The position numbers and the translations under genes were made by a program. The notes under the pieces were generated by a model. The model was not told where the DNA came from. It searched no databases and was given only the letters and a program-made list of their open reading frames with translations. From Fidelibacterota bacterium (lineage in GTDB: Bacteria > Fidelibacterota > UBA2242): 64,000 nt of DNA. The stretch is taken from the NCBI GenBank assembly GCA_049975265.1, contig JBNGDF010000005.1:10220-74219 (forward strand), written 5' to 3'. Below are positions 439-29,031 of this stretch, piece after piece. Every line of letters begins with the position of its first letter. The stretch's first letter is position 1.

Positions 439-511
439 GGCGAGGTAGCTCAGTCGGTAGAGCAGGGGACTGAAAATCCCTGTGTCGGCGGTTCGATTCC
501 GTCCCTCGCCA
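439..511 (+). tRNA. tRNA-Phe (anticodon GAA)
   Basis: Cloverleaf by hand: acceptor GGCGAGG/CCUCGCC, D-arm GCUC...GAGC, anticodon stem GGGGA/UCCCU with loop CUGAAAA (GAA at 34-36), T-arm GGCGG-UUCGAUU-CCGUC, discriminator A. CCA not encoded. Confidence 0.9.
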
Positions 512-651: not shown

Positions 652-1299
652 TCAAGAAGAAAGACGGAAATTTCCGGCCCTGCTTCCAATGGGATGGCTG
701 TCTTGAACCTGATAGAAATATACACCCGAACTATATTCTGAAGCGTCCCATTGCTGCTGATGAATACCGGAATTCTGGTATCAATAAACGAATTTTTCTA
801 CTAAATGACCATTGTTATTAAATGTTGTGAGACTGACGTTTGGTGGCTCACAAAGATTATAGGAAATGGTCGGGACCGGATTGAATGGGTTTGGAGAATT
901 CTGCAGAAGAGTGACTTTTTGGTGAGGATGAATGTTATGATCAACTCCGGTGTGCAAATCCCAACGGGTGGCTATAGAATATTCAATACCATTGAGTGCT
1001 TTTAAATAACCGGTATAATCGTATCCACAGATCTGGACCGTTGTTTTGCATTCCACCGCTGTATACCGGGTTACGGCTGACAGATTATTCACGGTGGTTG
1101 CTTTCATGAGAATTAATGGTTCATCCGATGATGCGGTTGCGGGGTGAGAACCGATTACCGCCAGACGTTCGCTATAGTTATCAAAAGAAAAGCTGATGTC
1201 CAATCCTACGTCCTGGATTGTAATATCGCCGATCTGAACAGTTATCAGTGATCGGTTTTGAAAACAACCGGAATTGAAATATAAACGCCTACCGGTTCA
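652..1299 (-). pseudogene. Remnant of a T9SS-secreted protein: C-terminal sorting domain only, interrupted by an in-frame TGA
   Basis: Track ORF 781..1203 (-) ends ...LLQNSPNPFNPVPTISYNLCEPPNVSLTTFNNNGHLVEKFVY with TGA at 781-783. The same frame continues YQNSGIHQQQWDASEYSSGVYFYQVQ...AGNF (hand-verified), which completes the canonical T9SS C-terminal domain motif. No N-terminal functional domain upstream; upstream stop at 1297-1299. Sits next to tRNA-Phe. Confidence 0.45.
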
Positions 1300-2651
1300 C
1301 CGTTTTGTTCTGCCGGCTTGAACTTTACCTTTTTTATGGCTTCCATAGCGGCTTTTTCCAGACCTTTGAAACCGGGGGATATGAGAACCGTTACAGAATC
1401 CGATACATCGCCGTTTTTATCCACCAATGTCTGGACAACTACGGTGCCTTCATGTCCTGCCTCTTTTTCGGCTTGCGGATAGACAACCGCTTTCTGGATA
1501 GCCGCAAAACCGCCGATAGGTTCAGGGGGAGAATCGTAGGGAACAAATTTCGGGTCATTCACTGCCGCTGTTTTTTCCGATGGATTCACCGGTGTGTTGT
1601 TATTTTGATTGTTGCAGGATAGAACAATCAGAATGATGGAAAGAAAAACGAGTGTGATTTTTTGAAATATTCCTAATTTCATTTGCAGCTCCTTTCCAAA
1701 ATTGAATAGATATTCAAACCGCCGAATGATGGTTTTTTTTGAGAAAAAGAGACCGTTGGCGATTAAAGGCAGCCGGTGATGAACCAGGTAACTTTCCAAG
1801 TTGTCCATCAATGTTCTGCCGTATTTCGCAGGACTCTCACCCAATAATTGAATGGCAGTCGCATCACAGATTTTTTCACGTTGAAAGTTGATTTGGTGAT
1901 TCGCCAGCCAGACCAGGGGATGGAAGAAATAGAGGATGTTTAGTACGTTCTGAACGCTGATGGTCAGAATATCCCGGCGTTTGATATGGGCTAATTCGTG
2001 ACAGAGCACATGGTTCATCTGTTGGGGCTTCCAGCGACTGGCGGATTCCGGCAGGTAAATGACCGGCTTGCGGAAACCTTTGGTAAATGGTGCCGGGACG
2101 TCTGGGGAGGTGCATAATCGAATCGGTTTTAAGATTCCAATCCGCTGCTTTAATAGATGTAAATTACTGGATTTAATAAATGTTAAGGATCTACTCAGAG
2201 ATGTAAAAAAGAGGCGTTCATTACGAATATATAAGAAGAGTAAAATCACAATACCGCATAGCCAGAGGATGAACAGGATTGACGGAATGGTTAATGAAAT
2301 CGCCGAACTGGTTTGCGATGCAGCGCCCGCCTGAACCGTATCGAAACGAAAACCGAAGAAGGGAATGACCGGAATTGCGGAATGCTGCGTGAGAGGAAAT
2401 TTGATAACCGGCAGAAGGATTGCTTTGAAGATAAACAGAGTCCAGATTGAATATAAAAAGACGGGAGACTTTTTTCGGAGCAAGAGATTGAGAGCAAACA
2501 GAATCATAAATACAAGTGTCAGTTGCAATGATTGGCGAGCGATGATATTCAGCCAGCTCTCACCCACCCGGTTGAGTGTTGCGATCAGATCAGCCATTTT
2601 CCTGCTCCTTTGTTTCGATGAAATGTTTGATTTTTTCCAGGTCCTTTTCAT
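1245..2651 (-). CDS. BlaR1/MecR1-family M56 peptidase signal transducer fused to a TonB C-terminal domain
   Basis: HELAHIKRRD (HExxH zinc motif) within multi-TM M56 architecture. C-terminal PPEPIGGFAAIQKAVVYP...GTVVVQTLVDKNGDV...KFKPAEQNGEPV is typical of a TonB C-domain. Likely real start at MADLIATL (around 2597), overlapping the upstream blaI. Confidence 0.8.
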   Translation of the reverse strand: MKRTWKKSNISSKQRSRKMADLIATLNRVGESWLNIIARQSLQLTLVFMILFALNLLLRKKSPVFLYSIWTLFIFKAILLPVIKFPLTQHSAIPVIPFFGFRFDTVQAGAASQTSSAISLTIPSILFILWLCGIVILLFLYIRNERLFFTSLSRSLTFIKSSNLHLLKQRIGILKPIRLCTSPDVPAPFTKGFRKPVIYLPESASRWKPQQMNHVLCHELAHIKRRDILTISVQNVLNILYFFHPLVWLANHQINFQREKICDATAIQLLGESPAKYGRTLMDNLESYLVHHRLPLIANGLFFSKKTIIRRFEYLFNFGKELQMKLGIFQKITLVFLSIILIVLSCNNQNNNTPVNPSEKTAAVNDPKFVPYDSPPEPIGGFAAIQKAVVYPQAEKEAGHEGTVVVQTLVDKNGDVSDSVTVLISPGFKGLEKAAMEAIKKVKFKPAEQNGEPVGVYISIPVVFKTDH

Positions 2652-2973
2652 TGAATTTTTGCGTATCGAATAAAAAGGCTGCCAGTTTTGAAAATGACCC
2701 GTCGAAGGCTCGTTTGACGAAATGGTTGGTCTCCTTCTTGAGAATATCGGTCTCTTTTACTGTAGCGGAATAGAAATTGACCAATCCGATCTTTTCTTTG
2801 GTCAAATATTTTTTATCCACCAGCCGCTCCATATAGGTCTGAATTGTGGTATAGGCTTTGGATTGGTGGGCAGACAGGGCTTCATACACATCCCGGACGG
2901 TTGCTTTGTCCTTTTTCCAGACCTGCTTCATGATTTCCCATTCGGCGTTTGTCAGTGTTTCGACTTTTGGCAT
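2590..2973 (-). CDS. BlaI/MecI/CopY-family transcriptional repressor
   Basis: 127 aa with N-terminal winged helix (LTNAEWEIMKQVWKKDKATVRDVYEALSAH...TIQTYMERLVDKKYL). Directly upstream of, and overlapping, the BlaR1-like gene in the classic BlaI-BlaR1 pairing. Confidence 0.85.
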   Translation of the reverse strand: MPKVETLTNAEWEIMKQVWKKDKATVRDVYEALSAHQSKAYTTIQTYMERLVDKKYLTKEKIGLVNFYSATVKETDILKKETNHFVKRAFDGSFSKLAAFLFDTQKFNEKDLEKIKHFIETKEQENG

Positions 2974-2997
2974 GTTTGTCTCCGAATTTGTCGCTAA

Positions 2998-3037
2998 TCT
3001 ACTACGTTGGTAGTAATATACGGGTCTTTGTAGTAGA
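2998..3037. promoter_or_regulatory. Candidate BlaI operator palindromes upstream of blaI
   Basis: TCTACTAC-gttg-GTAGTAA (2998-3016, imperfect 18-bp palindrome) plus a second right half-site GTAGTAGA (3030-3037). Lies 25-65 bp upstream of the blaI start codon (2973). Confidence 0.35.
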
Positions 3038-3280
3038 TGTCAAGTAAAAATGGGATAAATTGCGCCGGACTGAATTGCGCTTCATGGTTGCCAGCTTAAA
3101 TATGGATGGCAGTGGTAATTTCGATCGCAGGGTCACGGGGAATTTGATCCGCTCTTCAGCAAAAAACGGGTAAAATTTATCTCCGGTATTCTGTCACCAA
3201 TCAGTCAACCCGGTAAGAACGGCATAGCAGATAAAGTTTTAAGAATTTGTTTCGGTCTCACCCTCTGATTTTTCCGCGAA

Positions 3281-4666
3281 TTGCATGGAAAAAACGATAA
3301 AATATTTAATTTACAGTATGAAAACCGCCCGTTATCCGCAAAGAATTCATTCACCGCAGCTATGATGCGTTCCAATTCAGCGTTTCACATAATGGCAAAA
3401 CCGGTCGGTCCGCTCTGTAATCTTGCCTGTAAATACTGTTTCTATCTTGAGAAAGACAGACTTTTCCCACCTGCTGAGAAATGGATTATGACCCCGGAGA
3501 TAGTGGAAAAATTTATCCGTGAATATATCGAGTCGCAACCAACGCCGGTGGTCAGCTTTGCCTGGCAGGGCGGCGAACCGACATTAGCCGGCTTGGATTT
3601 TTTCAGGCAGGTTATCCGCCTTCAGAAAAAGTATTCTCATGGAAAAAGGATTGAAAACGCTTTTCAGACAAATGGGATTTTGCTGGACGACTGCTGGTGC
3701 GAATTCTTATCGGAAAATCGTTTTCTGGTGGGACTGTCCATCGACGGTCCCCAGGAAATTCACGATAAGTATCGCCTTTATAAGAATGGTAAACCGACCT
3801 TTGATAAGGTGATGGCTGCCCTGGACTGTTTAAAAAGACACGCTGTCGAATTCAACACCCTGACCTGTGTCTACAGAGAGAATTCCTACCGACCGCAGGA
3901 GATTTATGATTTCCTGAAGTCCATCGGCAGCCGGTTTATGCAGTTTATTCCGATTGTCGCCAGAAAAGCGCGCGATAACGATGGTACCGGACTGACCCTC
4001 GTACCTCCGACGTTTCAGGGAGAAGCGGCTGTAACCGAATGGTCGGTGGAACCTCTGCAGTATGGAAAATTTATGATGTCTGTTTTTAATAGCTGGGTAA
4101 GAAAGGATGTCGGTACATATTTTATCCAGCTGTTCGATGTATGTCTCGGGAGCTGGGTTGGTCAAAGCGCCGGACTTTGCATATTTGCCGAAACCTGCGG
4201 GTGGGCGCTGGCACTGGAGCATAATGGCGATCTGTACTCCTGTGATCACTTTGTCTTTCCTGAAAACCGGTTAGGTAACATAAGGGAGGAATCCCTCGGG
4301 AAGCTTGCAAACTCAGCGAAACAGATTCGATTCGGACGGGACAAAGCAGACACCCTGCCTCGTGTTTGCCGCCGCTGCGACGTGCGCTTTCTGTGTAATG
4401 GCGGTTGCCCCAAAAACAGGTTCGTGAAAACGACAGAGGGAGACCCTGGACTGAATTACTTATGTGCGGGCTACCAATACTTTTTCCACACAACAGCTCC
4501 ATATATGCGATATATGGTCAGTGAGCTGAACAACCGGCGCCCGCCCGCCAATGTAATGGATTTTGCGAGGCAGAAGGATAAGCATTTCCCCGGAGTCGAT
4601 CGTAACGATCCCTGTCCTTGCGGCAGCGGCGTCAAGTTTAAAGACTGCTGCGGCAGCGTTCGTTAG
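3281..4666 (+). CDS. Radical SAM / SPASM-domain enzyme (anaerobic sulfatase-maturase-like) with a C-terminal SEC-C metal-binding motif
   Basis: CNLACKYCFY (CxxxCxxC radical-SAM cluster motif). SPASM-type auxiliary cysteine motifs CRRCDVRFLCNGGCPKNRF. C-terminal CPCGSGVKFKDCCG matches a SEC-C motif. True start probably internal (MMRSNSAFHIMAKP, around 3365). Confidence 0.8.
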   Translation: MHGKNDKIFNLQYENRPLSAKNSFTAAMMRSNSAFHIMAKPVGPLCNLACKYCFYLEKDRLFPPAEKWIMTPEIVEKFIREYIESQPTPVVSFAWQGGEPTLAGLDFFRQVIRLQKKYSHGKRIENAFQTNGILLDDCWCEFLSENRFLVGLSIDGPQEIHDKYRLYKNGKPTFDKVMAALDCLKRHAVEFNTLTCVYRENSYRPQEIYDFLKSIGSRFMQFIPIVARKARDNDGTGLTLVPPTFQGEAAVTEWSVEPLQYGKFMMSVFNSWVRKDVGTYFIQLFDVCLGSWVGQSAGLCIFAETCGWALALEHNGDLYSCDHFVFPENRLGNIREESLGKLANSAKQIRFGRDKADTLPRVCRRCDVRFLCNGGCPKNRFVKTTEGDPGLNYLCAGYQYFFHTTAPYMRYMVSELNNRRPPANVMDFARQKDKHFPGVDRNDPCPCGSGVKFKDCCGSVR

Positions 4667-4813
4667 CTCCTTTGGTGGAAATATGTACAACCGCATGTCA
4701 GAGCTATTTGCAGGATGGTGGTGTATGTGTTTTTCAGTGAAATTTTACTTTTCAACGGAAAGAATTATTGGAATTATATCCAGAATATTTAAAATACACT
4801 GTAAATCAATCAA

Positions 4814-5662
4814 ATGGGGAAATTACGCATGATGAAGGAAAAACTAATTTATCGCGGCAAATCGAAGGATGTCTTCGAGATAAGTGCAGGATCGCATGCC
4901 GGCAAATACCGGATGGTTTTTACGGATAGGGCGACCGGCTATCTGGAAAACGGAAACCCGGTGTTTGATCCCGGTTACGATACGGTTGTCGGGGAGATTC
5001 CCGGCAAAGGAGCAATTGCCTGCCGGTTTGCCACCCATTTCTTCAAACTTCTGAAAGACAAAGGGATCCCTTCCCATTATATTGATACAGTCGGTGACAA
5101 CGAAATGATTGTGGAGCCCGCCATTCCGCTGAGTATGCCGGCGGAATCCCCGGAGCTGCCCGGTTCTGCGCCGCTGCTGAACCTTGAGTTCACCTGGAGA
5201 AACAATGCGACCGGCAGTTTCTGGCGCCGGTATCCCTTCGTGAAGCCCGGTAAAAATCTGCATAAGGTTGTCGAATTATGGACAAAGGGTGATCAGGATA
5301 TCCTGATTACCATGGAAGCCGTCGAAGCCACCGGAGCCATGACAAGAGCCGAAATCGCACAGAGCGTCGGGATTGTACAAAACATCGCCGAGATCGTCTC
5401 CCGGGAATTTGCGGTTCACGATCTCCATGTCATCGATGGAAAGTTCGAGCTGGGCAGATTGAAATACGGTGATGGTGCGATCGTTATCATCGATGAAATA
5501 TCCCCGGACGTCCTACGGGTCTGCAGAGGCTATGTGCCCGATACGGACGGTAATTGTATGGTCTTCAAAGAGTGTGCAGTCACCAATTTTGCTGACGACA
5601 AACGGACAATCAAGAACCGCAAACAGGTTCCAGCGTCCGATTTTATCAATATATTTCTATGA
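4814..5662 (+). CDS. SAICAR-synthetase (PurC)-family ATP-dependent ligase, divergent paralog
   Basis: LIYRGKSKDVFE, IPGKG, IPSHYI and GKFELG blocks align with PurC signature regions. At 282 aa it is longer than canonical PurC and carries extra inserts. Confidence 0.65.
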   Translation: MGKLRMMKEKLIYRGKSKDVFEISAGSHAGKYRMVFTDRATGYLENGNPVFDPGYDTVVGEIPGKGAIACRFATHFFKLLKDKGIPSHYIDTVGDNEMIVEPAIPLSMPAESPELPGSAPLLNLEFTWRNNATGSFWRRYPFVKPGKNLHKVVELWTKGDQDILITMEAVEATGAMTRAEIAQSVGIVQNIAEIVSREFAVHDLHVIDGKFELGRLKYGDGAIVIIDEISPDVLRVCRGYVPDTDGNCMVFKECAVTNFADDKRTIKNRKQVPASDFINIFL

Positions 5663-5730
5663 TCCCAAAAGCGCGGCGATCGGGGCTGATTATTATTGAA
5701 TTTTTAACCTTCAGGACATAAGGGGATATA

Positions 5731-6924
5731 ATGCAACGCTATGTAGGAACGGTGGCAAGAGGAATTCGGTTGCCCATCGTGCGTGAAGGGGATGCCATTG
5801 CAGAAATAGTTGTTGACAGTGTCATCGCCGCCGCTGAAGCAGAGGGATTCACCATCCGAGATCGGGATGTTGTGGGGATTACCGAGTCGGTGGTGGCGCG
5901 GGCACAGGGAAACTATGTCACGGTGGCTGCCATTGCGGCGGATTTGAAGATAAAATTCGGTGGCGACTGCCTGGGTGTTGTCTTTCCCATCCTCAGTCGC
6001 AACCGTTATGCCATTCTGCTGAAAGGAATCGCCCGCAGCACCCGGCAGATTGTCCTGCAATTCAGCTATCCATCCGACGAGGTCGGTAATCAATTGATCG
6101 AGCCGGACAAGGTGGAGGAAGAGGGTGTCAATCCCTGGACAGATCATTTTACGGAAAGCCAGTTTAAGCGGACTTTCGGCAGTAGTCTGCACCCGTTCAC
6201 GGGCATAGATTACGTTGCCTACTACCGTTCACTGGTGGAAAGCGAGGGAGCTAAGTGTACTATTCTCTTTTCCAATCAGCCGAAAACCATCCTAGACTAC
6301 GCCAAAAATGTTCTGGCGTGCGACATTCATACCCGGGTACGTACCAAGCGGCAGCTGCTGGCGGCAGGTGCACAGACGGTCTATAGCCTGGATGAAATTC
6401 TGTCCGCTTCCGTGAACGGTAGCGGGTATAATCCGGATTACGGACTGCTGGGCTCAAATAAAGCCAATGAGGAAACCGTGAAGCTCTTTCCCCGGGACTG
6501 CCAGCCGATAGTGGATCGCGTTCAGCAACTTTTCAGGGAAAAAACCGGTAAATCTGTAGAGGTTCTGATCTACGGCGATGGTGCTTTCAAAGACCCGGTG
6601 GGAAAAATCTGGGAGCTGGCAGACCCGGTGGTGTCACCCGCCTATACCGCCGGTTTACGGGGTACTCCCAATGAGATCAAGCTCAAGTATCTGGCGGACG
6701 ACCGCTTCGCAGATCTCACCGGACAGGCGCTGAAAGAGGCGATTGTTCAGGAGATTTATGAGAAAAAAGAGAATCTCGTCGGGGCAATGGAATCCCAGGG
6801 GACGACGCCCCGCTGCCTGACCGACCTGATCGGATCGCTCTGCGACCTGATTTCCGGCAGTGGCGATAAGGGTACGCCGGTGGTGTACATTCAGGGCTAT
6901 TTCGACAGCTTTGCCACCGGTTGA
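5731..6924 (+). CDS. CofE-like (F420-0:gamma-glutamyl ligase family) amide ligase, extended
   Basis: N-terminal LPIVREGDAIAEIVVDSV...DRDVVGITESVVARAQG and C-terminal ...DLIGSLCDLISGSGDKGTPVVYIQG resemble the CofE family terminal motifs. At 397 aa it has a large central insertion. Confidence 0.5.
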   Translation: MQRYVGTVARGIRLPIVREGDAIAEIVVDSVIAAAEAEGFTIRDRDVVGITESVVARAQGNYVTVAAIAADLKIKFGGDCLGVVFPILSRNRYAILLKGIARSTRQIVLQFSYPSDEVGNQLIEPDKVEEEGVNPWTDHFTESQFKRTFGSSLHPFTGIDYVAYYRSLVESEGAKCTILFSNQPKTILDYAKNVLACDIHTRVRTKRQLLAAGAQTVYSLDEILSASVNGSGYNPDYGLLGSNKANEETVKLFPRDCQPIVDRVQQLFREKTGKSVEVLIYGDGAFKDPVGKIWELADPVVSPAYTAGLRGTPNEIKLKYLADDRFADLTGQALKEAIVQEIYEKKENLVGAMESQGTTPRCLTDLIGSLCDLISGSGDKGTPVVYIQGYFDSFATG

Positions 6925-6968
6925 TACATATTTTAACCAGTAATTTACATTAAAGGGGGAGCAAGAGC

Positions 6969-8075
6969 ATGAACACGATAGAAAAAGCCCTGATGCACGG
7001 ATTGTTTGTTCATTTGCATCATAATATCGATAAGGTGATTGATTTCAAAGGGTTTCAGGAGATCAACCGTCAGGTGGAAAAAATCTGGACGGGAGCCTTA
7101 CTGGTGGGCCCGGAAGCCAATGACGATGCAGCGGTATTTCAATTTCCCGGAATGGATGGATTTGTGGTGGGAAAGATGGAGAGCCACTGCTCGCCTTGTG
7201 TACCTCGTCCCTACGACGCAGCCGCTACGGGTGCCGGTGGTGCCATGCGGGATGTGGTGGCGATGGGCGCCCGCCCAATTTTTTTATTGGATTTCATCGG
7301 TACCCGGCCATTGGACCAGGAGGTAATTGTCGGACCCTGTGGATTTAAGGGGCGTTGTACCTGCGGCAAATGTAAGGTCATGACCAGTCAGGAGCGGGTG
7401 AACATCATGGTCAAAGGTTTGGGGGATATGTGCCGGACGATGGATGTGTTTATTGTCGGCGGTGGCTTCTCCACCTCCTTTTCGGATATTGTGCCGGCGG
7501 TGGTGGTGTCGGTTATCGGCAAACTGGTTACGGAAAAGCCACTCACCAAACCGGCGAAAGATGCGGGCGACCAGATCATCATCATCGGTGTAACCGGTAA
7601 TGATGGAAACGATACCCTCTACCGCGCCGGTCTGGTCGAAGAAATGCGTCCGGCGATCGCCCTGTTTGATGAAGAAAAAGTGGCAATGGAGGCGGCGTTG
7701 GCGGCATTTGCCACCGGTCAGGTCAAAGCCTGTTCCGACCTGGGTGCAGCGGGTATCGGTGCCGCCATCTGTGAATCCGCCCGGTACGGCAAACGGGGTG
7801 CCAGAATCGATTTAACCAAAGTTCCTGTCTCTATTCAGGACATCACTCCTCAGGAAATCCTGATTTGTGAAACCCAGGCGCGGTATATCGTGCAGGTGGC
7901 GCCGGAAGCGGTGGATGAGGTGGTGGCGGCTATTCGTTCCAAAACCGAGCATGTCGCCGTCATCGGTGAAATTACCACCGCTGATCAGGAGGTTTTCGAG
8001 TATAATGGTGAGGTCATTGCCGCGATTCCCAATCAGCCGTCGCAGGCAGAGCTTGAAATACTGAAAAGCAGTTAG
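6969..8075 (+). CDS. AIR-synthase-related (PurM-like superfamily) protein
   Basis: NDDAAV...G block and AATGAGGAMRDVVAMGARP match the PurM-like N-domain glycine-rich motif. C-terminal domain also PurM-like. Confidence 0.65.
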   Translation: MNTIEKALMHGLFVHLHHNIDKVIDFKGFQEINRQVEKIWTGALLVGPEANDDAAVFQFPGMDGFVVGKMESHCSPCVPRPYDAAATGAGGAMRDVVAMGARPIFLLDFIGTRPLDQEVIVGPCGFKGRCTCGKCKVMTSQERVNIMVKGLGDMCRTMDVFIVGGGFSTSFSDIVPAVVVSVIGKLVTEKPLTKPAKDAGDQIIIIGVTGNDGNDTLYRAGLVEEMRPAIALFDEEKVAMEAALAAFATGQVKACSDLGAAGIGAAICESARYGKRGARIDLTKVPVSIQDITPQEILICETQARYIVQVAPEAVDEVVAAIRSKTEHVAVIGEITTADQEVFEYNGEVIAAIPNQPSQAELEILKSS

Positions 8076-8165
8076 TAATCATCCGAAGGATCTCTTTGAG
8101 AAAGGAAAAAATCAGTAGAGAATCGTTCAGCAACCTATGCTGTCGGATTGTGCTCCGGCGCCGTT

Positions 8166-9149
8166 TTAACTCTTTTCCGCCTGATGCAGAAAGTGCCGGA
8201 CGACCTGCAGGTATTCCTGCGGTTTTTCCAGATGGTGTTCGTGGGACGCATTTTCGAAAATCCGGATTTGAGACCCGGGCAGATGATCCTGAAAAAATTG
8301 CGTTGTTGTCGGTGTTGCTTCGTCATACTCGCCGCAGGTGAACAGCACCGGTATATCTATCTCATTCAGATGATCAGTGCGTTCGTAGCTATTCAGTTCA
8401 CCGGTGACGGTAAATTCACTGGGACCCCACATGTGTTTGTACATTTCGAAATTTATCGTCTCGAACGACCTGTTCAGACAGTCCGGCCAGGTATCGAGAC
8501 GGCAGACATGCCGACGATAAAAATCCATCATCGCTCCCTGATATTGGGAAGAACTGTAATCGCCAGTTTGTTCAGATTTTAGGATGATTGCCCGGGTTGA
8601 TTCCGGCATTTCACGAATATAGGCGTTCTGGTCTGCGATCCAGCGCGAGGCGCTGAGCAGGGGCCCGGAGAGAATGAGACTCTCAACGCCTGCAGGTTGA
8701 TGGGTCAGCATATAATCAATCGCCAGCGCGCATCCCCAGGACTGACCCAGAATATGGCATTTTTTCAATTCCAGCGCCTGACGTACCTGATGAAGTTCCT
8801 CCACAAAATGCCCGATGGTCCACAGATTTTTATCTGCCGGTCGGTCGGATTTGCCGCAGCCCAGCTGGTCATAGAAAATGACCGGACGTTCATCTGCCAG
8901 CGCCTCGAGCGGTTCAAGGTAGTCGTGTGAGACCCCCGGACTGCCGTGTATAATCAAAAGTGGCATACCGGTTTGGTTTTTACCTGCAATTTTGTACCAA
9001 ATTTTACCGCCGGTGACTATAATATAACCTTCCTGCAGATCATCGGAGTTTTCGGTTATGATGATATCTGTTTTCTTTTCTATGGAACACCCCCCGAGTA
9101 GAAGTACAAAAACGATTAAGGAAAGTAGCCGTGATTTGAGATAGAACAT
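8166..9149 (-). CDS. Proline iminopeptidase (S33 alpha/beta hydrolase), lipoprotein
   Basis: GQSWG nucleophile elbow, HGSPG motif and prolyl-aminopeptidase family architecture. Lipoprotein signal MFYLKSRLLSLIVFVLLLGGCS. Track ORF extends to 9215, but the signal peptide suggests the ATG at 9149. Confidence 0.8.
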   Translation of the reverse strand: MFYLKSRLLSLIVFVLLLGGCSIEKKTDIIITENSDDLQEGYIIVTGGKIWYKIAGKNQTGMPLLIIHGSPGVSHDYLEPLEALADERPVIFYDQLGCGKSDRPADKNLWTIGHFVEELHQVRQALELKKCHILGQSWGCALAIDYMLTHQPAGVESLILSGPLLSASRWIADQNAYIREMPESTRAIILKSEQTGDYSSSQYQGAMMDFYRRHVCRLDTWPDCLNRSFETINFEMYKHMWGPSEFTVTGELNSYERTDHLNEIDIPVLFTCGEYDEATPTTTQFFQDHLPGSQIRIFENASHEHHLEKPQEYLQVVRHFLHQAEKS

Positions 9150-10517: not shown

Positions 10518-11798
10518 ATGTGGCAACAAACGATTGGTATGGTTTTGCTCACGACGGTTTTGAGCCTGAATGCCCGGGATGCGGCTGCCGTCCCGACAGA
10601 AAAGGTATTCAATATGGAAGCCCGGGTTGATTCTCTGCACCAGAGGATTCGCCACCTGGAGGAGGAGTTGTAGCAAATCAGGCAAAATACGCAGGATGAG
10701 AGGTCAGAAATGGACGAGTTGCTGGCGCTGTTCAACGGCGATGCGGTGGAGACGGCGGATATCGAATCCCGTTCCCGGCATAAGCGTGTCGACGAACTCT
10801 TGAAAGCCATTGTTCAGCAACCAGGTCAGTTGCGCTTCAATGGGGGTGCGACGGCGATTTTTCAGGGAGGCGGCGACCGCAGTGATCAATATTCCAGCGC
10901 CACCGGCTCGTTTGATATTTACGCCTCGACAGCGTTTGGACCTAATACACTGCTGTTTTTCGATTGGGAAGCCATCGGCGGAAACTGACCGGACGACTAT
11001 TTTCCCAATTTTGCCGGTTTGAACGGAGACGCCGGTTCGACTCAGGACAGCCTGGGAATCGATCGTTTGACGGTGCTGGAAGCCTGGGCTGAATTTACCA
11101 TGCTGAACAGAATTTTTACAATTACTGCCGGGAAGATTGACCTGACCGACTATTTTGACAACAACGCCTCGGCGAATGACGAGACGATGCAGTTTATCAG
11201 TGGTGCCTTTGTGAACAGCGCCGCCTTTGCAGTGCCGGGCAATTCGCCCGGTGTCCGGCTGCGCACGACATTGTTCGATCGTTTTCATTTTCAAACAGGT
11301 ATCGTCAGCGCCGATAATTCAGGCAGTGAGATTTTGAAAGAGCTGTACCGGATCGCCAGCCTCGGTTTTACCCTCTTTCCCGCTTCCGATTTTGAGTCCA
11401 ATTTGCGTTTTTACGGATATCAGGACCCGCGTGCGGGTTATGCCACCGGCTGGGGAATCAGCTTTGATAATCTCTCTTTTGGAACCTATAATATTTTCGC
11501 CCGCTACGGACAGAACAGCACCGGTGTGGCGGAAAGTTGGGGCGTTCGCTGTGCCTGGAGTCTGGGCATCCGCTTTATGCGGGAAATCGCCAGCCAGTCC
11601 ACAGCTGTGGGGCTGGCATACGGGGAGACAACACTCCGGGATGATGATTTGCATAACGAACAGCTGCTGGAATTGTACGCTCGCCGCCAGGTCAATAAAT
11701 GGACGCACCTGTCACCCCATTTACAGGTTATCTGGAATGCCGGTGGCGCTGCTGACCGGATCATTCTGTTCGGAGTGCGAACACATTTTAATTTTTAA
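10518..11798 (+). pseudogene. OprB-family carbohydrate-selective porin (signal peptide, coiled coil, beta-barrel) interrupted by in-frame TAG and TGA
   Basis: One continuous frame (positions divisible by 3). Signal peptide MWQQTIGMVLLTTVLSLNA, then coiled coil ...RIRHLEEEL. TAG at 10671-10673, then QIRQNTQDERSEMDELL...FDWEAIGGN. TGA at 10986-10988, then PDDYFPNFAGLNGDAGS... The C-terminal ELYARRQVNKWTHLSPHLQVIWNAGG resembles the OprB C-terminal motif. Confidence 0.6.
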
Positions 11799-11810
11799 AA
11801 AAGGAGAAGT

Positions 11811-12815
11811 ATGAACCGATTTTATTATTGGATAATAGCAGTTAATCTGGCAGTGGTGAATGGTGCTGCCGGTAAAGAAGAACCGCTGGTGCAGCAGATC
11901 CGGTCCGCCGTTCAACACGAGGCATTTACGGTCAATGCGCTGGTTCAATCGGGATTCCGTTACTCTCTGGGAGACGACAATTTTCAGGGCGGTCGGACCT
12001 TTGAGGCTGCCAACGCCAGGCTGAGTTTTCGCGGGAATCTGGATGGGGGATTTTTTTACCGGCTGTTTTTCAATCTGGTCAAGGAGCCGAACCTGCTGGA
12101 TGCCTATATCGGCTACCGCTTCAGCGATGCTCTGCGTATTACCACCGGAGCCATGAAGCCGAAGCAGACCCTGGACTTTATTCCTGATCCCGGTTCGATG
12201 GATTTCATCGACCGCACGCATATCACCGATCTGCTTGTTCAGTCCCGGGAGATCGGAGTGTCGTTTGAGGGCGATGTCGGAGGGCTCTATTACTTTTCCG
12301 GAATTTTTAACGGCAATAAATTGTCGTCGAATAATAACAACGAATTCTACGGAATCGGACGGCTTCAGTACACTCTCGGGGATTTACAGCTGGCGGTGCA
12401 AGGTTCACACGGCAATTCACCCGGCGTGCAGACCGGTAATGCGGGGCCCGTATTGCAGGGCAAGCGGACCATTTACGGCGGCGATGTCCGGTTGAAGGCG
12501 GAACGTCTGCTGCTAGCGGCGGAATATCTGGCTGGCAGCCTCGATCTCGACTCGACGGCTGGTAGCGACAAGAAGGATCTGATCAGTGGCTACTATATCA
12601 CCGCCGGTTACCGGATACTGGAAAAGACTATGCTGCTGAGTCGCTGGCAGTCCTGGGGATACCGGGAGCAGGATTTTCGGGATCATCAGGTTACTTTTGG
12701 GATCAACCACAATTTTACCGGTGTCACCAGACTGCAGCTGAATGCCGACGCCTACTTTCCGGAAAAGAGCGATCGCCAGTATGGACTCTCCCTGCTGTTA
12801 CAGGTGCAATTTTAA
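11811..12815 (+). CDS. Phosphate-selective porin O/P (OprO/OprP)-like outer-membrane protein
   Basis: Signal peptide, then a 334-aa beta-rich protein with alternating hydrophobic patterning ending in the aromatic ...LLQVQF. Family assignment from overall resemblance only. Confidence 0.45.
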   Translation: MNRFYYWIIAVNLAVVNGAAGKEEPLVQQIRSAVQHEAFTVNALVQSGFRYSLGDDNFQGGRTFEAANARLSFRGNLDGGFFYRLFFNLVKEPNLLDAYIGYRFSDALRITTGAMKPKQTLDFIPDPGSMDFIDRTHITDLLVQSREIGVSFEGDVGGLYYFSGIFNGNKLSSNNNNEFYGIGRLQYTLGDLQLAVQGSHGNSPGVQTGNAGPVLQGKRTIYGGDVRLKAERLLLAAEYLAGSLDLDSTAGSDKKDLISGYYITAGYRILEKTMLLSRWQSWGYREQDFRDHQVTFGINHNFTGVTRLQLNADAYFPEKSDRQYGLSLLLQVQF

Positions 12816-21358: not shown

Positions 21359-22828
21359 TTAAACTGCAGCGGGATGGGTAAGCGTTTTGTATAATTTGAG
21401 GTACTGTTTGGCGGATTGCCGCCAGGAAAAATCCGCCTGCATGCCGTTCTGCTGGAGCAGTCGCCACGTTTTGGGATTGGAAAAGACTGATACTGCATCG
21501 CTGACGGCAATGACCAGGTCATCCGCGCTATAGTTCGCAAACAGAAAACCGTTGCCGGTCTCTCCGTTCCACTGTGTGATGGTATCCGCCAGTCCGCCGG
21601 TTTTGTGAATCACCGGGACGGTCCCGTATGACAAAGCTGCCATCTGGGTGATACCGCAGGGTTCGTAGCGGGAAGGCATTAGAAAGATATCACAACCAGC
21701 CAGGATTTTATGGGAGAGCGGGTTATTATAGCCGGAGTTAAATTTGAACTGTTTGGAATGATGATCGGCGATCCGCCGCAGCGATTGCTCATACTTCGCT
21801 TCGCCACTGCCCAGGATGACGATGGCAATCTCCATTTTCAGAATCCGCTCCAGCGCTTCGATCAAAATTGGAATCCCTTTCTGTTCGACCAGCCGGGAGA
21901 CCAATCCGATGAGAGGTTTATGGACATATTCCGGACTGATGCCGACATCGTTCATCAGGGCGACCTTATTATGGTATTTTTCCGCAATGGTCTGAAGAGA
22001 ATAAGGCTGGGTGATGTAGCGGTCGGTAGTGGGATTCCATTCGGAATAATTAACCCCATTCAGGATTCCATGCACCGGTTTACCGGTTGCCAGCAACACA
22101 TTTTTCAAGCCGGCACTCATGGTATCGTCGGTTACAATTTCTATTGCATGCGTCGGGCTGACGGTGCTGATGGCATCGGCGTACAGGATGCCGGCTTTGA
22201 GCGGATTGATCTGTCCGAACCACTCCAGCGGTGCCGTGGGGTAAAACAGTTCGTCGGGTAAATTATAGATCCGGCGGGCACTCATCTCTGTAATCCCCTG
22301 ATAGCCGACATTGTGCAGGGTCAGCAGGGTCTTTGTCTCCTGAAAATCACGATATTCCCGGGATTTCGCTTTCAGATAGACCGGAATCAGGGCGCAGTGA
22401 TTATCATTGCAATGAAAAACAGCGGGTTGCAGGTTGAGTAACCGGGCGGCTTCCAGACCTGCCTTTGAGAAAAGCAGAAAGCGCTGTGCGCTGTCGCTGT
22501 AGTAGTGTCCGTTTTGATCGGCATAAACGCCCCGTGAACCGAAATAGAACTCATTTTCGATGAAAAAGATTTGGAAATGTGAATTTTGTGGTGGCTGCCA
22601 GCGGGACAAACCACACGCGATGGTTTCGTTACCGATGTCGACATTGAACCGGTAGGGACTGCTTTCCAGTTTAAACTTTCGGCGATTTATCGTCCCGTAC
22701 GCCGGTGTTATTACCGTCATATCCACGCCCAAGGATGCCAATTCGACGGGTAGTGCACCGGCTACATCGCCCAGTCCGCCGACTTTGGAGAAGGGGTACA
22801 CCTCTGCTGAAACAAATACGATCTGCAT
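21359..22828 (-). CDS. glgA: Glycogen synthase (ADP-glucose type)
   Basis: N-terminal MQIVFVSAEVYPFSKVGGLGDV (the KxGGL motif) and C-terminal GT1 domain. Track ORF extends 10 codons upstream to 22858. Confidence 0.9.
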   Translation of the reverse strand: MQIVFVSAEVYPFSKVGGLGDVAGALPVELASLGVDMTVITPAYGTINRRKFKLESSPYRFNVDIGNETIACGLSRWQPPQNSHFQIFFIENEFYFGSRGVYADQNGHYYSDSAQRFLLFSKAGLEAARLLNLQPAVFHCNDNHCALIPVYLKAKSREYRDFQETKTLLTLHNVGYQGITEMSARRIYNLPDELFYPTAPLEWFGQINPLKAGILYADAISTVSPTHAIEIVTDDTMSAGLKNVLLATGKPVHGILNGVNYSEWNPTTDRYITQPYSLQTIAEKYHNKVALMNDVGISPEYVHKPLIGLVSRLVEQKGIPILIEALERILKMEIAIVILGSGEAKYEQSLRRIADHHSKQFKFNSGYNNPLSHKILAGCDIFLMPSRYEPCGITQMAALSYGTVPVIHKTGGLADTITQWNGETGNGFLFANYSADDLVIAVSDAVSVFSNPKTWRLLQQNGMQADFSWRQSAKQYLKLYKTLTHPAAV

Positions 22829-22839
22829 GGAATTTGGGT

Positions 22840-24552
22840 CTATTTTCCCAGTGTGCACCAGTAACGAAAATCGAGGGTGGGAAAGATTTCGTCATCTTTC
22901 TGAATGCGATCGAGATATTCTCTGGCGCCGTCGCTGAGACTGCCATCCGCCAGATATGTATCCAGAATCCGCCGCAGATTTTTGATCCGCTCATCGTGAA
23001 CAGTGACACGGTCTTCCGCATAATCCCGGGCGCTCCAGGTACTGATCAGAAATTGCCAGTCGGAACTTTCGAGCAGCAGCAGCTGCCGCGCTATAATGTT
23101 GAGGATTTCCGCCAGCGTTGCGTCATTGGTGTCTTTATACTGATCCGCCAACGCGATCATCCGATCTTCGGCGGCATAAATGTGTTTCCAGGTCCACTGG
23201 GTCCATTCATTCAGCCAGATATAGTGAAAACCACCCTGTCCCCAGGAGCCCTCCGGCAGTGAGACGGAGATTTTCGGCGGGTTATCGCGAAGATGTTCAC
23301 CGAGCGTCACTTTGCGGACCGAGGTGTCGCCGTTCAGTTTGCGCAGGACCTTTCCCACCCAGCGCGTTCCTTCGAACCACCAGTGCCCGAACAGCTCTGT
23401 ATCAAAGGGGGCCGTCAGAATGCCGGTCCGGCCGGTTGCGGCATAATGTTGATGAAGGTAATCATGGACCAACCCTGCAAAATGGGAAGCCTGGTTTTCC
23501 AGTGCCTCCTCCACATCTTCGGGATAGTATTCCTGCTTGTCGGCGAGGTCTGCTTTGGCACTGGTCACCTTCCAGAAGCGGTGTCCGCCGGGATAGTGTT
23601 TTTTATGAAAATCCAGATAGCGCCCGTCGCCGGGATAGCCGTATTCGCCGCTCCAGACCTGCAGTGAAGACTCTTCGTGCCGTCCGTAGACCACCGCTGC
23701 CCGGCTTGTTCCGGTGGAGCTGACCAGATAATTTTCGTAAATCGATCGTTCGGTGGTCTCTTTACGGGGTTTCCAGTTTTTCTCGAATTGACGCCAGAGC
23801 TGTTTCAGAGAGTCAAAGCGGTCGATATAAACCCCCTTGCCTTCGCCGCCCATAATCAGGTGCTTATCAACGATGAAATACTGAATGTCGTATTTGTAGA
23901 GAAATTCTTCGATCCCTTTGCGCTGAAATATTTTCGGGTATTCGGGAATCGGTGATGACCATTCATAACTGGGGCGATAGGCGCATTCCGGCAGCCACAT
24001 TCCCCGGGGCGCGCACCCAAAATGGCGCTGGTAAGTCTCCTTTCCAATCCGTATCTGGGCATCGATCGCCTCGTCGGAGCCCAGCAGCGGAAAATATCCA
24101 TGGGTAGCCGCGCAGGTGATGATTTCGATCTGCTCATCTTCCTGAAGTTTGCGGAATCCCGCCAGCAGATCCTGGTGGTAAACGTCGCTAAAACGTTGTT
24201 TGATATCGGTATAGAAATTTAACCAGAACTGTGCCAGCCGCTCGAGATGTTCGTTCCCGAGTTTGACAAATTCCAGCTGATTATCCCTGGCTGCCTCAAT
24301 TTTCTGGTCAAGGTAGTGAATCAGACCGGCTTTGAATTTATCCGCCGCCAGCTGCTCCGCCAGGATAGGAGTAATTCCTAGAGTGACCTTGGGACTGATG
24401 CCGTCGGCTGCCAGTGAGTCCAGTTCCTTCAGCAGAGGAATATAGGTTTCTGCAGCGGCTTCGTAGAGCCAGTCCATGCCGTGGGGCCATTCGCCGTGAT
24501 TGATCACATAGGGGAGATGGCTATGAAATACAAAAGTAAAGTATCCTTCCAT
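22840..24552 (-). CDS. GH57-family 1,4-alpha-glucan branching enzyme-like protein
   Basis: N-terminal FVFHSHLPYV (GH57 His-x-His-x-Pro signature), 570 aa, adjacent to glgA. Confidence 0.75.
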   Translation of the reverse strand: MEGYFTFVFHSHLPYVINHGEWPHGMDWLYEAAAETYIPLLKELDSLAADGISPKVTLGITPILAEQLAADKFKAGLIHYLDQKIEAARDNQLEFVKLGNEHLERLAQFWLNFYTDIKQRFSDVYHQDLLAGFRKLQEDEQIEIITCAATHGYFPLLGSDEAIDAQIRIGKETYQRHFGCAPRGMWLPECAYRPSYEWSSPIPEYPKIFQRKGIEEFLYKYDIQYFIVDKHLIMGGEGKGVYIDRFDSLKQLWRQFEKNWKPRKETTERSIYENYLVSSTGTSRAAVVYGRHEESSLQVWSGEYGYPGDGRYLDFHKKHYPGGHRFWKVTSAKADLADKQEYYPEDVEEALENQASHFAGLVHDYLHQHYAATGRTGILTAPFDTELFGHWWFEGTRWVGKVLRKLNGDTSVRKVTLGEHLRDNPPKISVSLPEGSWGQGGFHYIWLNEWTQWTWKHIYAAEDRMIALADQYKDTNDATLAEILNIIARQLLLLESSDWQFLISTWSARDYAEDRVTVHDERIKNLRRILDTYLADGSLSDGAREYLDRIQKDDEIFPTLDFRYWCTLGK

Positions 24553-24778
24553 AATATCCTCAGGTTTTTATTGTTCCGTTTTCAATGCCCCGTAAAATAC
24601 AACAGTTTGAATTAAAAATCCGCTACTCTTTTTCGGGCGGGAGAAATGTTGGTTTGGGTTATCTCCTGGCAAGGAAAATTGACCTGCGGGTGGAGTAGCC
24701 GGTTCCAGTACAGAAAGCCCTGTGCTGTTCACACAAGGCTTGGAGGAGGAGAAGAAGGGAACTGTATGTTTTTTGGGT

Positions 24779-25165
24779 TTATTCCAGGTTTCGGGAGGCG
24801 ATCAGGGGAATTCCCGAACCGGCAATGTTTTCCATCAGAATATCTCCCATTTTGACTGGAGTCGCTACTTCTATCCGGTTGATTTCATTCATACAAGGAA
24901 ATATCAGATGTTTGGGAATTGCTTCCCGGGTGCGCACCGGTAAACGTTTATAGTGGGAGTTAATAACCTTTACTGTGGAGGTTAGTATTCGGCGGGGGTC
25001 GGTCATTTCAGCGATCGCATAACTGATGCCCCGTTTGCAGGAATTACCCTCTACCCGAAATCCGTTTTCCGATTTTTCATCGCGGTAAACCGTCAGCCTG
25101 CAACCAATCGGGCAGGCGGTACAGATAAGCTCTTTAGATTGCATATGATGTTTTTTCTCCATCAA
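24779..25165 (-). CDS. DUF1667-domain protein (third subunit of a GlpA-like flavoenzyme module)
   Basis: 128 aa with a cysteine motif CTACPIGCRL. Genomic context with two flavoproteins. Confidence 0.55.
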   Translation of the reverse strand: MMEKKHHMQSKELICTACPIGCRLTVYRDEKSENGFRVEGNSCKRGISYAIAEMTDPRRILTSTVKVINSHYKRLPVRTREAIPKHLIFPCMNEINRIEVATPVKMGDILMENIAGSGIPLIASRNLE

Positions 25166-27898: not shown

Positions 27899-28099
27899 GC
27901 CGCCGAGTCCTTCATGTTGTTAAAGAATAAATATACATTAATATTAATTCATTGATAATTTCAACTATCTGTCGCCAAAAGTCAATAAAAAATTTTAAGA
28001 CTATCGGTTATCCGTTAATTATATCCCCAAAATTCAGCGATTCTATAAAGATCGGCATTTACTTTTTAAAGGCGGATTAATTGATAGGTAGAACAGATA

Positions 28100-29031
28100 T
28101 TAAGTTAGATGAAGCAGCTCGTCAGCCCCCTGATCATCAATAACCAGAGAGTTGATGATTCCTGCTCTCGCCGCAGCGGCAACGACTTGAGCCCGATCCC
28201 GTCCGCCGGTTACGGCAACCACTTCCGGAATCCTTTTTAACTGTTCCAAGCTGATGCCGATAATCCGGTTTGTATAAGTGGTTTCACATTCATTGCCATC
28301 TTGGTCCAGAAAATGACCACAGATTTCACCCACCATGCCCCGGGATTTAAGGTTATTTAATTTGTGTTTTTCAGAAAATTCATTTGTGTAGAAGACCGAA
28401 TTTACCGGATTACCAATTCCTACGAAAGCCAGGTTGGCATGATCCATCTGGTTTAGGACATATTTAATCTGCTCGTGTTCTACAAAAATTTGGTAGCTGC
28501 GGTGGTCGGGAGTGATTGCGGGGGCTTGCAGACGATAATATTGTCCGCCCCAGCGTTTCGCCAGGCGCCGGGTAAGTTCGATAGCATCATTTTCCTGAAT
28601 CTGGGTAGAAATATCACCGATGGCTTGAATAAAGATATTGCTGTAAGTCGCTTGGGTCGGTTTCATCTCCTCCGTCACAGCATTCAGATAACGTCCCGCG
28701 GCGACACAGACAACTGAACCGGATTTGATTAGTTTGCTGAGAACAGGAGCCGCAAAATGCCCCATCGTGTAGCGATACTGTTCGCTGGTCTGACCGGGGA
28801 TTGTTTTGATGACGACGCAGTGATGAAAATGGAATTCTTCCATCAATTTCTTTTCAAGCACCTGATCACGGGGCGAAAAAGGCTTAACCTGGATTTGGAC
28901 TATTCCCTTTTTACGGGCTTCCTGGAGCAGACGGGACACATTAGCCTGGGATAGTCCGGCTAGTTTAGCTACTTTAGCCTGCCCCAGACCTTCGATGTAG
29001 TAAAGCGAGGCAACAAGCAGTAAAATTTCAT
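28100..29031 (-). CDS. SorC/CggR-family sugar-phosphate-binding transcriptional regulator (locus 1)
   Basis: C-terminal sugar-binding domain in track ORF 28100..28939 (GTG). The HTH LLLVASLYYIEGLGQAKVAKLAGLSQANVSRLL continues in-frame upstream to a stop at 29078-29080, with no in-frame ATG. An ATG at 29029-29031 lies 1 nt out of frame, just before a TTTT/AAA run; an in-frame ATT (29048-29050) lies 6 nt downstream of an AGGGAG SD. Confidence 0.65.

Follow-up and report, generated by a model that had tools for sequence, protein, structure and literature searches.

A three-gene operon of divergent purC-, cofE- and purL-like genes next to a probable sulfatase-maturase gene in a Fidelibacterota genome

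The DNA analyzed here (the window, a 64 kb stretch of a Fidelibacterota (Marinimicrobia) MAG) contains two independent units side by side: a radical SAM/SPASM gene, whose product is probably an ordinary anaerobic sulfatase maturase (anSME), and a three-gene operon, purC'-cofE'-purL' (~4755-8075). On sequence comparison, each of the three ligases encoded by the operon is a divergent paralogue in a slowly evolving, unnamed subfamily that is scattered, usually as a lone gene, among anaerobic bacteria of many phyla. The best reading of the region, and the one that we favor on balance, sets an anSME unit beside a lineage-specific ligase operon whose products take part in a dispersed accessory pathway, one that forms C-N bonds at the expense of NTPs on a substrate resembling a purine intermediate.

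Organization of the locus

Four ORFs (3281-4666, 4814-5662, 5731-6924 and 6969-8075) run in one direction, with gaps of 147, 68 and 44 bp between them (Table 1). This is the co-directional, closely spaced layout that a first-pass annotation of the sequence had described, and its domain assignments are reproduced by Pfam: Radical_SAM, SPASM and SEC-C in the first ORF, followed by SAICAR_synt, F420_ligase, and AIRS with AIRS_C. The union of all four genes in one operon, which the same annotation had proposed, does not survive comparison with related genomes. In the closest relatives, loci L012 and L092, the purC'-cofE'-purL' trio is 88-93% identical to that of the window, and the anSME gene is absent upstream of purC', a divergent 1022-aa gene being found there instead; the radical SAM gene is likewise absent from all ~170 other ligase loci. 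When the window is aligned with L092 and L012, conservation starts only ~60 bp before purC', and the sequence further upstream of the conserved block is unalignable. Inside that block is a sigma-70-like element, TTGGAA-16-TAAAAT at 4768-4795 (a consensus match only), and purC'-cofE'-purL' appears from the alignment to have a putative promoter-like region of its own. The three ligase genes form a single operon in this MAG.

A shared regulator or riboswitch that would tie the ligase genes together was not found: Rfam scans that covered the window as a whole, positions 2900-8300 in a sensitive mode and 40 related loci yielded tRNAs alone and no riboswitch, the purine, ZTP and THF classes included, on which grounds an RNA leader was rejected. 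Anti-phage defense was also rejected as a function, PADLOC returning no match for the three ligases and, for anSME, nothing beyond weak generic matches to radical SAM (viperin model) and to the SEC-C region.

Table 1. Features of the anSME gene and the purC'-cofE'-purL' operon (positions are those of the window)
Feature	Position	Strand	Description
anSME, radical SAM/SPASM	3362..4666	+	NF010308 and TIGR03942; transcription unit separate from the ligase operon
SEC-C zinc-knuckle motif	4601..4654	+	DPCPCGSGVKFKDCCG; PF02810, 38.6 bits (cut-off 20.4), ORF residues 441-458
Conserved block upstream of ligase operon	4755..4801	+	Putative promoter or operator; almost unchanged from the window to L092/L012
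purC'	4829..5662	+	SAICAR-synthetase paralogue; SAICAR_synt PF01259, 105 bits; ORF open from 4814
cofE'	5731..6924	+	Long CofE-family protein, 397 aa; F420_ligase PF01996, 186 bits; internal insertion of ~160 aa
purL'	6969..8075	+	368 aa; AIRS and AIRS_C; paralogue of the catalytic N-terminal half of small PurL (FGAM synthetase II)

The radical SAM/SPASM gene

The first ORF is open from a TTG at 3281; the ATG at 3362 is the likelier start because residue 34 of the ORF is the first to align with the anSME model, at position 12 of the latter. The protein matches two anSME equivalog models over their full length and above both cut-offs (NF010308, 522.7 bits, cut-off 484; TIGR03942, 507.4 bits, cut-off 349.45), and is therefore probably a sulfatase maturase. 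With the known anSMEs AtsB, ChuR and anSMEcpe it has in common the radical SAM CX3CX2C motif (CNLACKYC) and a SPASM domain with auxiliary-cluster cysteines (CX2CX5CX3C, CRRCDVRFLCNGGC); with further cysteines the complement is full. It differs from them in a 27-residue C-terminal extension that ends in the SEC-C motif; the anSME model stops short of this motif, at residue 434. An enzyme of this kind, a radical SAM protein with two auxiliary 4Fe-4S clusters, would convert an active-site Cys or Ser of a sulfatase to formylglycine. The first-pass annotation had reasoned that no sulfatase lies nearby and that the enzyme is for this reason probably not a sulfatase maturase. The premise stands, none of the ORFs scanned from the 64 kb stretch having the C/S-x-P-S/A-R signature or a sulfatase Pfam domain, but the conclusion is at odds with the two equivalog scores. 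An exact-sequence look-up of the anSME product gave no record.

On models of peptide maturases (DynA, DarW and others) the protein reaches 160-205 bits, in every case far below the cut-off of the model, and the precursor-peptide ORF suggested earlier, upstream of anSME or between the genes, was sought without a plausible candidate emerging; short ORFs do occur ahead of anSME and within the 147-bp gap, but they are unconvincing. These results, together with the want of a radical SAM gene at related ligase loci, led to rejection of a RiPP-type SPASM maturase cluster.

Three divergent relatives of purine and F420 enzymes

All three ligases fall below the equivalog cut-offs of their parent families yet keep the catalytic motifs of those families. 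Literature searches on the gene combination and on each '-like' family disclosed no assigned function and nothing relevant except the reports on Chlamydia FolC2 and on archaeal purC-like genes that are cited below; the description of the set as uncharacterized, already made on first inspection, is borne out.

PurC' is taken to start at 4829 because the NCBI annotation specifies 277 aa. It scores 98 bits on TIGR00081 (cut-off 189.9) and is likewise far below the cut-offs of six other purC models. The domain is that of PurC, and the N-terminal GK(S/A)K, RN..GS and DEISPD motifs, which contact CAIR and ADP in E. coli PurC (PMC3261824), are retained: 83 members of the PurC' family have GKSK, WRNNATGS and DEISPD without variation, and these segments align to the solved PurCs. 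PurC' departs from PurC in a ~15-residue insertion near position 100 and in its C-terminal 45 residues, which align to no solved PurC, each such alignment ending at DEISPD..R. In E. coli PurC, R199 and R215 contact CAIR (PMC3261824); a conserved KRTIKN motif of PurC' might substitute for these C-terminal arginines, and three Cys near the divergent C-terminus are also conserved. In contrast to PurC, PurC' is found outside pur operons, usually as a lone gene, and 80 metagenome loci disclose no recurrent neighbor.

CofE' belongs with CofE and the FbiB N-domain to PF01996, but is much longer than CofE (~250 aa): 379 of its residues are spread over the 218-position profile, and it must therefore contain a large insertion, which is internal and of alpha/beta type. 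Its score on TIGR01916 is 42 bits (cut-off 180.65). The best solved matches of its AF2 model (pLDDT 79) are to A. fulgidus CofE (2phn, 2g9i and 7uld, at 11-14% identity), the sole solved fold matched, with further weak and partial Rossmann-like matches; a CofE' family profile searched against PDB sequences did not retrieve CofE. F420 biosynthesis genes (cofC/D/G/H, fbiC) are absent from the window ORFs scanned and from the surroundings of CofE' in six other contexts, and neither fol nor other folate genes adjoin CofE' in any context examined. Recruitment of the CofE family to a substrate outside F420 synthesis has a precedent in Chlamydia CT611 (FolC2), which replaces FolC in folate metabolism (PMC1971073, PMC4161248); the cluster names of distant CofE' relatives are uninformative on orthology to FolC2.

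In the PDB, PurL' can be aligned to the PurL of T. maritima and that of T. thermophilus. PurL is also the characterized family on which it scores best, at 170.6 bits on TIGR01736 (cut-off 525.75) over model positions 52-351 of 718. Small PurL consists of two tandem PurM-like halves (~720 aa) and is usually adjacent to PurS and PurQ, whereas PurL' is equivalent to one half, to which a conserved four-Cys insertion has been added (CX6CXCX2C; C124, C131, C133 and C136), and neither PurS nor PurQ recurs beside it. The AIRS/AIRS_C architecture and the DDAA, ESH..P, RD and DLGAAG motifs of small PurL are retained, in conserved segments that read DDAA, MESHCSPC, GGAMRD and CSDLGAAG.

Distribution, conservation and linkage

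The ligase subfamilies are about 70-93% identical across >15 phyla of anaerobes (PurC' 75-88% and CofE' 69-89% across phyla, PurL' 67-93% across >15 phyla). Four-fold degenerate sites are saturated (identity 0.25-0.42), and GC3, which ranges from 0.34 to 0.92, is host-like; the proteins have therefore been under long-term purifying selection, and recent horizontal transfer as the source of their high identity is rejected. The families differ in size: CofE' has at least 8000 matches, as against 946 for PurL' and 665 for PurC', and is a lone gene in Clostridium, Tindallia and Hydrogenedentes, so that it must have a role independent of the others. IMG/VR contains nine CofE' matches, all host-like, one of which adjoins an integrase and none of which has phage-type neighbors; PurL' and PurC' were not found there, and phage auxiliary genes were rejected as an explanation.

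Adjacency of the trio is confined to this lineage, where it occurs once among 80 GTDB-species PurL' loci and once among 80 metagenome PurC' loci. Elsewhere, nearly all of 160 loci have just one of the genes (~98% of the sampled loci have single genes with lineage-specific, functionally unrelated neighbors), and in other Neomarinimicrobiota with an 87-89% identical PurL' the neighbors are missing. Of the two findings that the first-pass annotation had named as jointly refuting its proposal, one is borne out, the four genes of the window being syntenic nowhere else and the trio in the nearest relatives alone; the other is not, the three ligases grouping apart from housekeeping orthologues. Clustering of the neighbors at 80 PurL' loci singled out one recurrent partner, a PurM-like gene. 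This PurM', a fourth family that is absent from the window, lies 17 bp downstream of PurL' in 25 of the 40 informative clade-B PurL' loci and scores 157 bits on TIGR00878 (cut-off 236); since it matches the purM model from end to end, the notion that PurL' and PurM' are the halves of a split PurL was rejected.

Other adjacencies are rare. A tight PurL'-PurM'-PurC' operon is found in an acidobacterial locus (L068, Acidobacteriota), PurC' and PurL' lie 800 bp apart in L163, and in L136 another long gene of the CofE type, 33% identical to CofE', is located 186 bp upstream of PurC'; a Bacteroidales MAG (locus-tag prefix JXB19) has PurL' at one locus and PurC' at another. Three independent PurL'/PurC' adjacencies were observed in the 160 loci, where ~0.2-0.3 would be expected by chance on our own rough estimate. 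No other pur or fol gene accompanies the ligase families in ~170 loci. Because PurC', CofE', PurL' and PurM' are repeatedly, though rarely, adjacent, we infer that their products serve a single, dispersed accessory pathway.

A candidate pathway and its alternatives

What such a pathway might do can be sketched from the chemistry of the parent enzymes, from which every step, with its substrate, nucleophile and product, is borrowed. PurL', probably a homodimer operating without PurS or PurQ, would use ATP to phosphorylate an amide oxygen for replacement by free ammonia or an amine, yielding an amidine; PurM', where present, would drive closure of an aminoimidazole-type ring with ATP; PurC' would turn a ring carboxylate of a phosphoribosyl-like substrate into an acyl phosphate, for coupling to an acidic amino acid; and CofE' would add glutamate at the expense of GTP or ATP. 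The end product would plausibly be an amino-acid-conjugated aminoimidazole-type nucleotide or cofactor. A bolder version, which we offer tentatively and consider possible rather than probable, is that PurL', PurM', PurC' and long CofE' constitute an ancient and unrecognized shadow of mid-purine biosynthesis, preserved by strong purifying selection in >15 anaerobe phyla (70-93% protein identity in spite of saturated silent sites) and making a new compound of this kind, and that the present operon is a rare place in which three of its genes have been joined.

The foremost competing explanation, which we hold to be unlikely, is that these are alternative isozymes with housekeeping roles. Purine steps 4, 5 and 7 would be carried out by PurC', PurL' and PurM' as functional versions of the enzymes, perhaps dependent on ammonia or adapted to anaerobes; CofE' would act as a folylglutamate synthase of the FolC2 type, and the operon would serve ordinary purine and one-carbon metabolism. 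The corresponding purine enzyme is indeed the nearest characterized family of each protein, the catalytic and phosphate-binding motifs are kept (residue roles in PMC3261824), the L068 operon brings three of the genes together, the Chlamydia enzyme does replace FolC (PMC1971073, PMC4161248), and a central role would fit very strong purifying selection. Yet every score is far under its equivalog cut-off, and the families are small and patchy and are present in orders such as Bacteroidales and Eubacteriales, which normally have the canonical purine pathway. Company with other pur or fol genes and control by a purine, ZTP or THF riboswitch are missing from the loci and scans described above; the region of PurC' that would correspond to the CAIR contacts R199 and R215 is not alignable with solved PurCs, and PurL' dispenses with the second half of PurL and with PurS and PurQ as recurrent neighbors.

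Chance juxtaposition, by which three unrelated lone genes would have come to share a transcript but not a pathway in one Marinimicrobia lineage, is less probable still. It accords with the solitary state of the genes in ~98% of sampled loci amid unrelated, lineage-specific neighbors; it is harder to reconcile with adjacencies that arose independently among these families in unrelated phyla, as in L068, L163, L136 and the PurL'-PurM' pairs of clade B, with gaps of only 68 and 44 bp downstream of a conserved block, and with the same unusual conservation and habitat range in all families. The four-gene reading of the first-pass annotation, with a SPASM enzyme and three ligases making a modified peptide, nucleotide or cofactor, can draw on co-directional genes and a gap of just 147 bp before purC', on the maturation of peptides by anSME-related SPASM enzymes and on the radical SAM genes that often precede archaeal purC-like genes (PMC3261824), but is very improbable and appears largely refuted by synteny, given also that the anSME cut-offs are exceeded and those of each peptide maturase are not, that a conserved block of its own precedes purC', that no credible precursor ORF was found, and that the archaeal neighbors are CofG/CofH-like and not SPASM enzymes.

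Implications

The anSME part of this region is ordinary. The interest of the remainder, in the reading of a dispersed accessory pathway, is that if the linkage is real, four families that are automatically annotated as PurC, CofE, PurL and PurM carry the wrong name in thousands of anaerobe genomes and would mark an unknown and strongly constrained pathway. The operon described here and the acidobacterial PurL'-PurM'-PurC' operon would then provide compact material for heterologous expression and metabolomics. Real linkage would also correct metabolic reconstructions for Marinimicrobia and other uncultured phyla in which F420 biosynthesis is inferred from a cofE annotation, or in which these genes are counted towards completeness of the purine pathway.

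The ligase genes and their surroundings

Four co-directional ORFs with the domains described in the first-pass annotation are present, separated in order by gaps of 147, 68 and 44 bp. The last three specify PurC', CofE' and PurL', look-alikes of PurC, CofE and PurL (hereafter the trio); the first specifies a radical SAM/SPASM protein. Annotated proteins 100% identical to CofE' and PurC' come from a Fidelibacterota (Marinimicrobia) MAG, where they lie on a 163-kb contig. The best-supported reading, toward which we lean without great assurance, is that the trio belongs to an accessory pathway which is otherwise dispersed and which this lineage has brought together as one operon. By their domain and profile matches, the flanking genes are unrelated: a BlaI repressor and a BlaR1-TonB_C sensor upstream, divergent, and a proline iminopeptidase downstream of the trio, convergent. 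Neither sulfatase nor purine, folate or F420 genes were found among the ORFs scanned across the 64 kb window; no riboswitch was found, nor did the three ligases match any defence system.

Coordinates of features in the window and in related loci (L-numbers) of other genomes and metagenomes
Feature	Location	Orientation	Content
tRNA gene	window 439-511		sole above-threshold Rfam match in the window
Repressor and sensor	window 1245-2973	- strand, divergent from ORF 1	BlaI-type; BlaR1 (M56) fused to TonB C-terminal domain
ORF 1	window 3281-4666	co-directional with ORFs 2-4	Radical_SAM, SPASM, SEC-C
SEC-C zinc knuckle	window 4601-4654		appended to ORF 1 product; unusual domain combination
ORF 2 (PurC')	window 4814-5662	co-directional	SAICAR_synt
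ORF 3 (CofE')	window 5731-6924	co-directional	F420_ligase, 379 residues over 218-position profile
ORF 4 (PurL')	window 6969-8075	co-directional	AIRS, AIRS_C
Two adjoining ORFs	window 11019-12815	+ strand	partial porin matches (OprB C-terminal end, then Porin_O_P N-terminal part); perhaps a pair of divergent porins, perhaps a single disrupted gene
Two regions	window 21359-28939 and 36461-58735		glycogen genes (GH57 branching enzyme, glycogen synthase); two FAD/pyridine-nucleotide oxidoreductases, one with BFD-like 2Fe-2S domain; two GDPD phosphodiesterases; SorC-type regulators; TonB-dependent receptors; several T9SS-sorted surface proteins with lamin-tail domains
PurM'	L050 11106-12233; also L056, L058, L062, L066-L068, L077, L081, L083 and others		79-86% identical across phyla
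CofE-like/PurC' pair	L136 4588-5838 and 6025-6858
PurL' and Flavodoxin_5-family gene	L172 3001-4684; also L173, L174 (other Marinimicrobia)		second gene starts one base after PurL'
CofE-like and HI0933-like FAD oxidoreductase genes	L176 6652-9233		40%-identical long CofE-like gene overlaps end of oxidoreductase gene by 4 bp
tRNA gene runs	L028 3187-3261; L034 3648-3721 (two Elusimicrobia MAGs)		PurL' begins 40-75 bp later
tRNA genes	L047, L074		just after PurL' or PurM' genes

Relation to PurC, CofE and PurL

The trio proteins are predicted not to be the housekeeping enzymes after which they are named. The best curated models for PurC', CofE' and PurL' are TIGR00081 (purC; score 98, cut-off 189.9), TIGR01916 (cofE; 42, cut-off 180.65) and TIGR01736 (purL; 170.6, cut-off 525.75), and the shortfall in all three cases bears out the initial description of an uncharacterised ligase set. 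PurL' aligns to positions 52-351 of the 718 of TIGR01736 only, that is, to one of the two PurM-like halves of PurL; it retains the DDAA, MESHCSPC, GGAMRD and CSDLGAAG motifs of PurL and has an added conserved CX6CXCX2C insertion. PurC' likewise retains GKSK, WRNNATGS and DEISPD; its last ~45 residues, with three conserved cysteines, cannot be aligned to any solved PurC. The conserved cysteine motifs suggest Zn or Fe-S sites. The AF2 model of CofE' (pLDDT 79) matches only A. fulgidus CofE among solved structures, at 11-14% identity; additional weak, Rossmann-like partial matches are probably attributable to its insertion. Searching the PDB by sequence with the CofE' protein or its family profile did not find CofE, and distant CofE' relatives carry no informative names. 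That these are unfamiliar housekeeping isozymes, with CofE' acting as a FolC2-type folylglutamate synthase, we regard as unlikely; for the CofE' part there is a precedent in Chlamydia, where a CofE-family protein replaces FolC (PMC1971073, PMC4161248).

Conservation and distribution

Each trio protein falls within an unnamed subfamily whose conservation is remarkable. Homologues match the window protein at 69-89% identity for CofE' (Marinimicrobia, Hydrogenedentes, Sumerlaeota, Cloacimonas, Actinobacteria, Clostridium, Tindallia), 67-93% for PurL' (80 GTDB species in >15 phyla, all anaerobe MAGs) and 75-88% for PurC' (Bacteroidales, Deltaproteobacteria, Desulfomonilia, Spirochaetes, Kiritimatiellae). 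Recent transfer is excluded as the source of this identity: between partners with 75-87% protein identity, the identity at four-fold degenerate sites is no more than 0.25-0.42, and GC3 of the family genes, which ranges from 0.34 to 0.92, tracks the host genome. The conservation thus reflects long-term purifying selection, which we judge unusually strong for metabolic enzymes. CofE' has at least 8000 matches, against 946 for PurL' and 665 for PurC', and must therefore also work without them. PurL' and PurC' were not found in viral contigs; the CofE' matches there have the look of host rather than phage genes: none is flanked by genes of phage type, and one adjoins an integrase.

Synteny of the families

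Among 80 species-level loci on the PurL' side the trio recurs in L012 only, and among 80 metagenome loci on the PurC' side in L092 only; the two are of the same lineage. Other Neomarinimicrobiota whose PurL' is 87-89% identical are also without the trio. CofE' is solitary in Clostridium faecium, Hydrogenedentes and Tindallia, and PurL' in Thermoguttaceae, Syntrophales and Bacteroidales. Absence of synteny elsewhere, which the first-pass annotation would have counted against a joint function, is nearly complete for the cluster as such, yet the same families adjoin again independently. In L068 (Acidobacteriota) the genes for PurL', PurM' and PurC' form, in that order, a tight operon, PurM' being a PurM-like protein of a fourth conserved family (375 aa; 157 bits on TIGR00878, cut-off 236) that does not occur in the window. 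In L163, 800 bp separate PurC' and PurL'. L136 has, 186 bp upstream of PurC', a long CofE-like gene that is divergent from CofE' (416 aa, 33% identity), an independent link between these families. PurL' and PurC' also occur together, though at separate loci, in one Bacteroidales MAG (locus-tag prefix JXB19). Of 40 informative clade-B loci, 25 have the gene for PurM' 17 bp downstream of PurL', as do none of 30 clade-A loci; no other neighbour recurs. By our estimate for a 3000-gene genome, 160 loci would by chance show ~0.2-0.3 cases of PurL' next to PurC', against three independent ones observed. Chance juxtaposition of the trio genes, with which the rarity of the full cluster would agree, is accordingly a distinctly improbable explanation.

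Two further arrangements concern individual families. The spacing of PurL' and the Flavodoxin_5-family gene suggests that their translation is coupled; in the window, PurL' has no gene of this family after it. The overlapping CofE-like and HI0933-like genes of L176 may work together in the lineage concerned.

The radical SAM gene

Profile scores identify the radical SAM gene as, in all probability, an ordinary anaerobic sulfatase-maturing enzyme (anSME), of a kind already known and forming a unit separate from the trio. Its product exceeds the cut-offs of NF010308 (522.7 bits, cut-off 484) and TIGR03942 (507.4, cut-off 349.45), which leaves the proposal that it is not a sulfatase maturase unsupported; every peptide-maturase model scores it far under its own cut-off. 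The translation contains CX3CX2C and SPASM CX2CX5CX3C motifs, and model alignment points to ATG 3362 as the likely start. The SEC-C motif (38.6 bits, cut-off 20.4), lying past the end of the anSME model, is by its score evidently genuine. A precursor-peptide ORF, a check that the first-pass annotation had suggested, was looked for, and no credible one was found.

The closest relatives, L012 and L092, keep the trio at 88-93% identity together with the convergent peptidase, and lack anSME; a divergent 1022-aa gene occupies the upstream position in both. When the upstream DNA is aligned, ~60 bp before purC' are nearly invariant, including a TTGGAA-16-TAAAAT site, and sequence farther upstream is unalignable. 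Since conservation is confined to this block and anSME is missing in the closest relatives, the ligase genes carry a putative regulatory region of their own. With anSME absent also from roughly 170 related loci, the four-gene operon originally proposed finds no support, and a joint radical SAM pathway is very improbable. Archaeal purC-like genes are often preceded by CofG/CofH-like radical SAM genes (PMC3261824); that arrangement is not applicable here, because the window enzyme is a SPASM-type anSME.

A candidate pathway

For the dispersed accessory pathway that we favour, we infer four steps from the chemistry of the parent families. PurL', probably a homodimer working without PurS/PurQ, would make an amidine from an amide by way of an ATP-derived iminophosphate, with free ammonia or an amine as the attacking group; PurM', where present, would close an imidazole-type ring; PurC' would activate a ring carboxylate of its phosphoribosyl-like substrate as an acyl phosphate and couple it to an acidic amino acid; and CofE' would add glutamate. 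No literature on this gene combination was found. The trio enzymes are novel forms of familiar types, and what makes them moderately interesting is chiefly that several linked, unstudied families are so strongly conserved across phyla.
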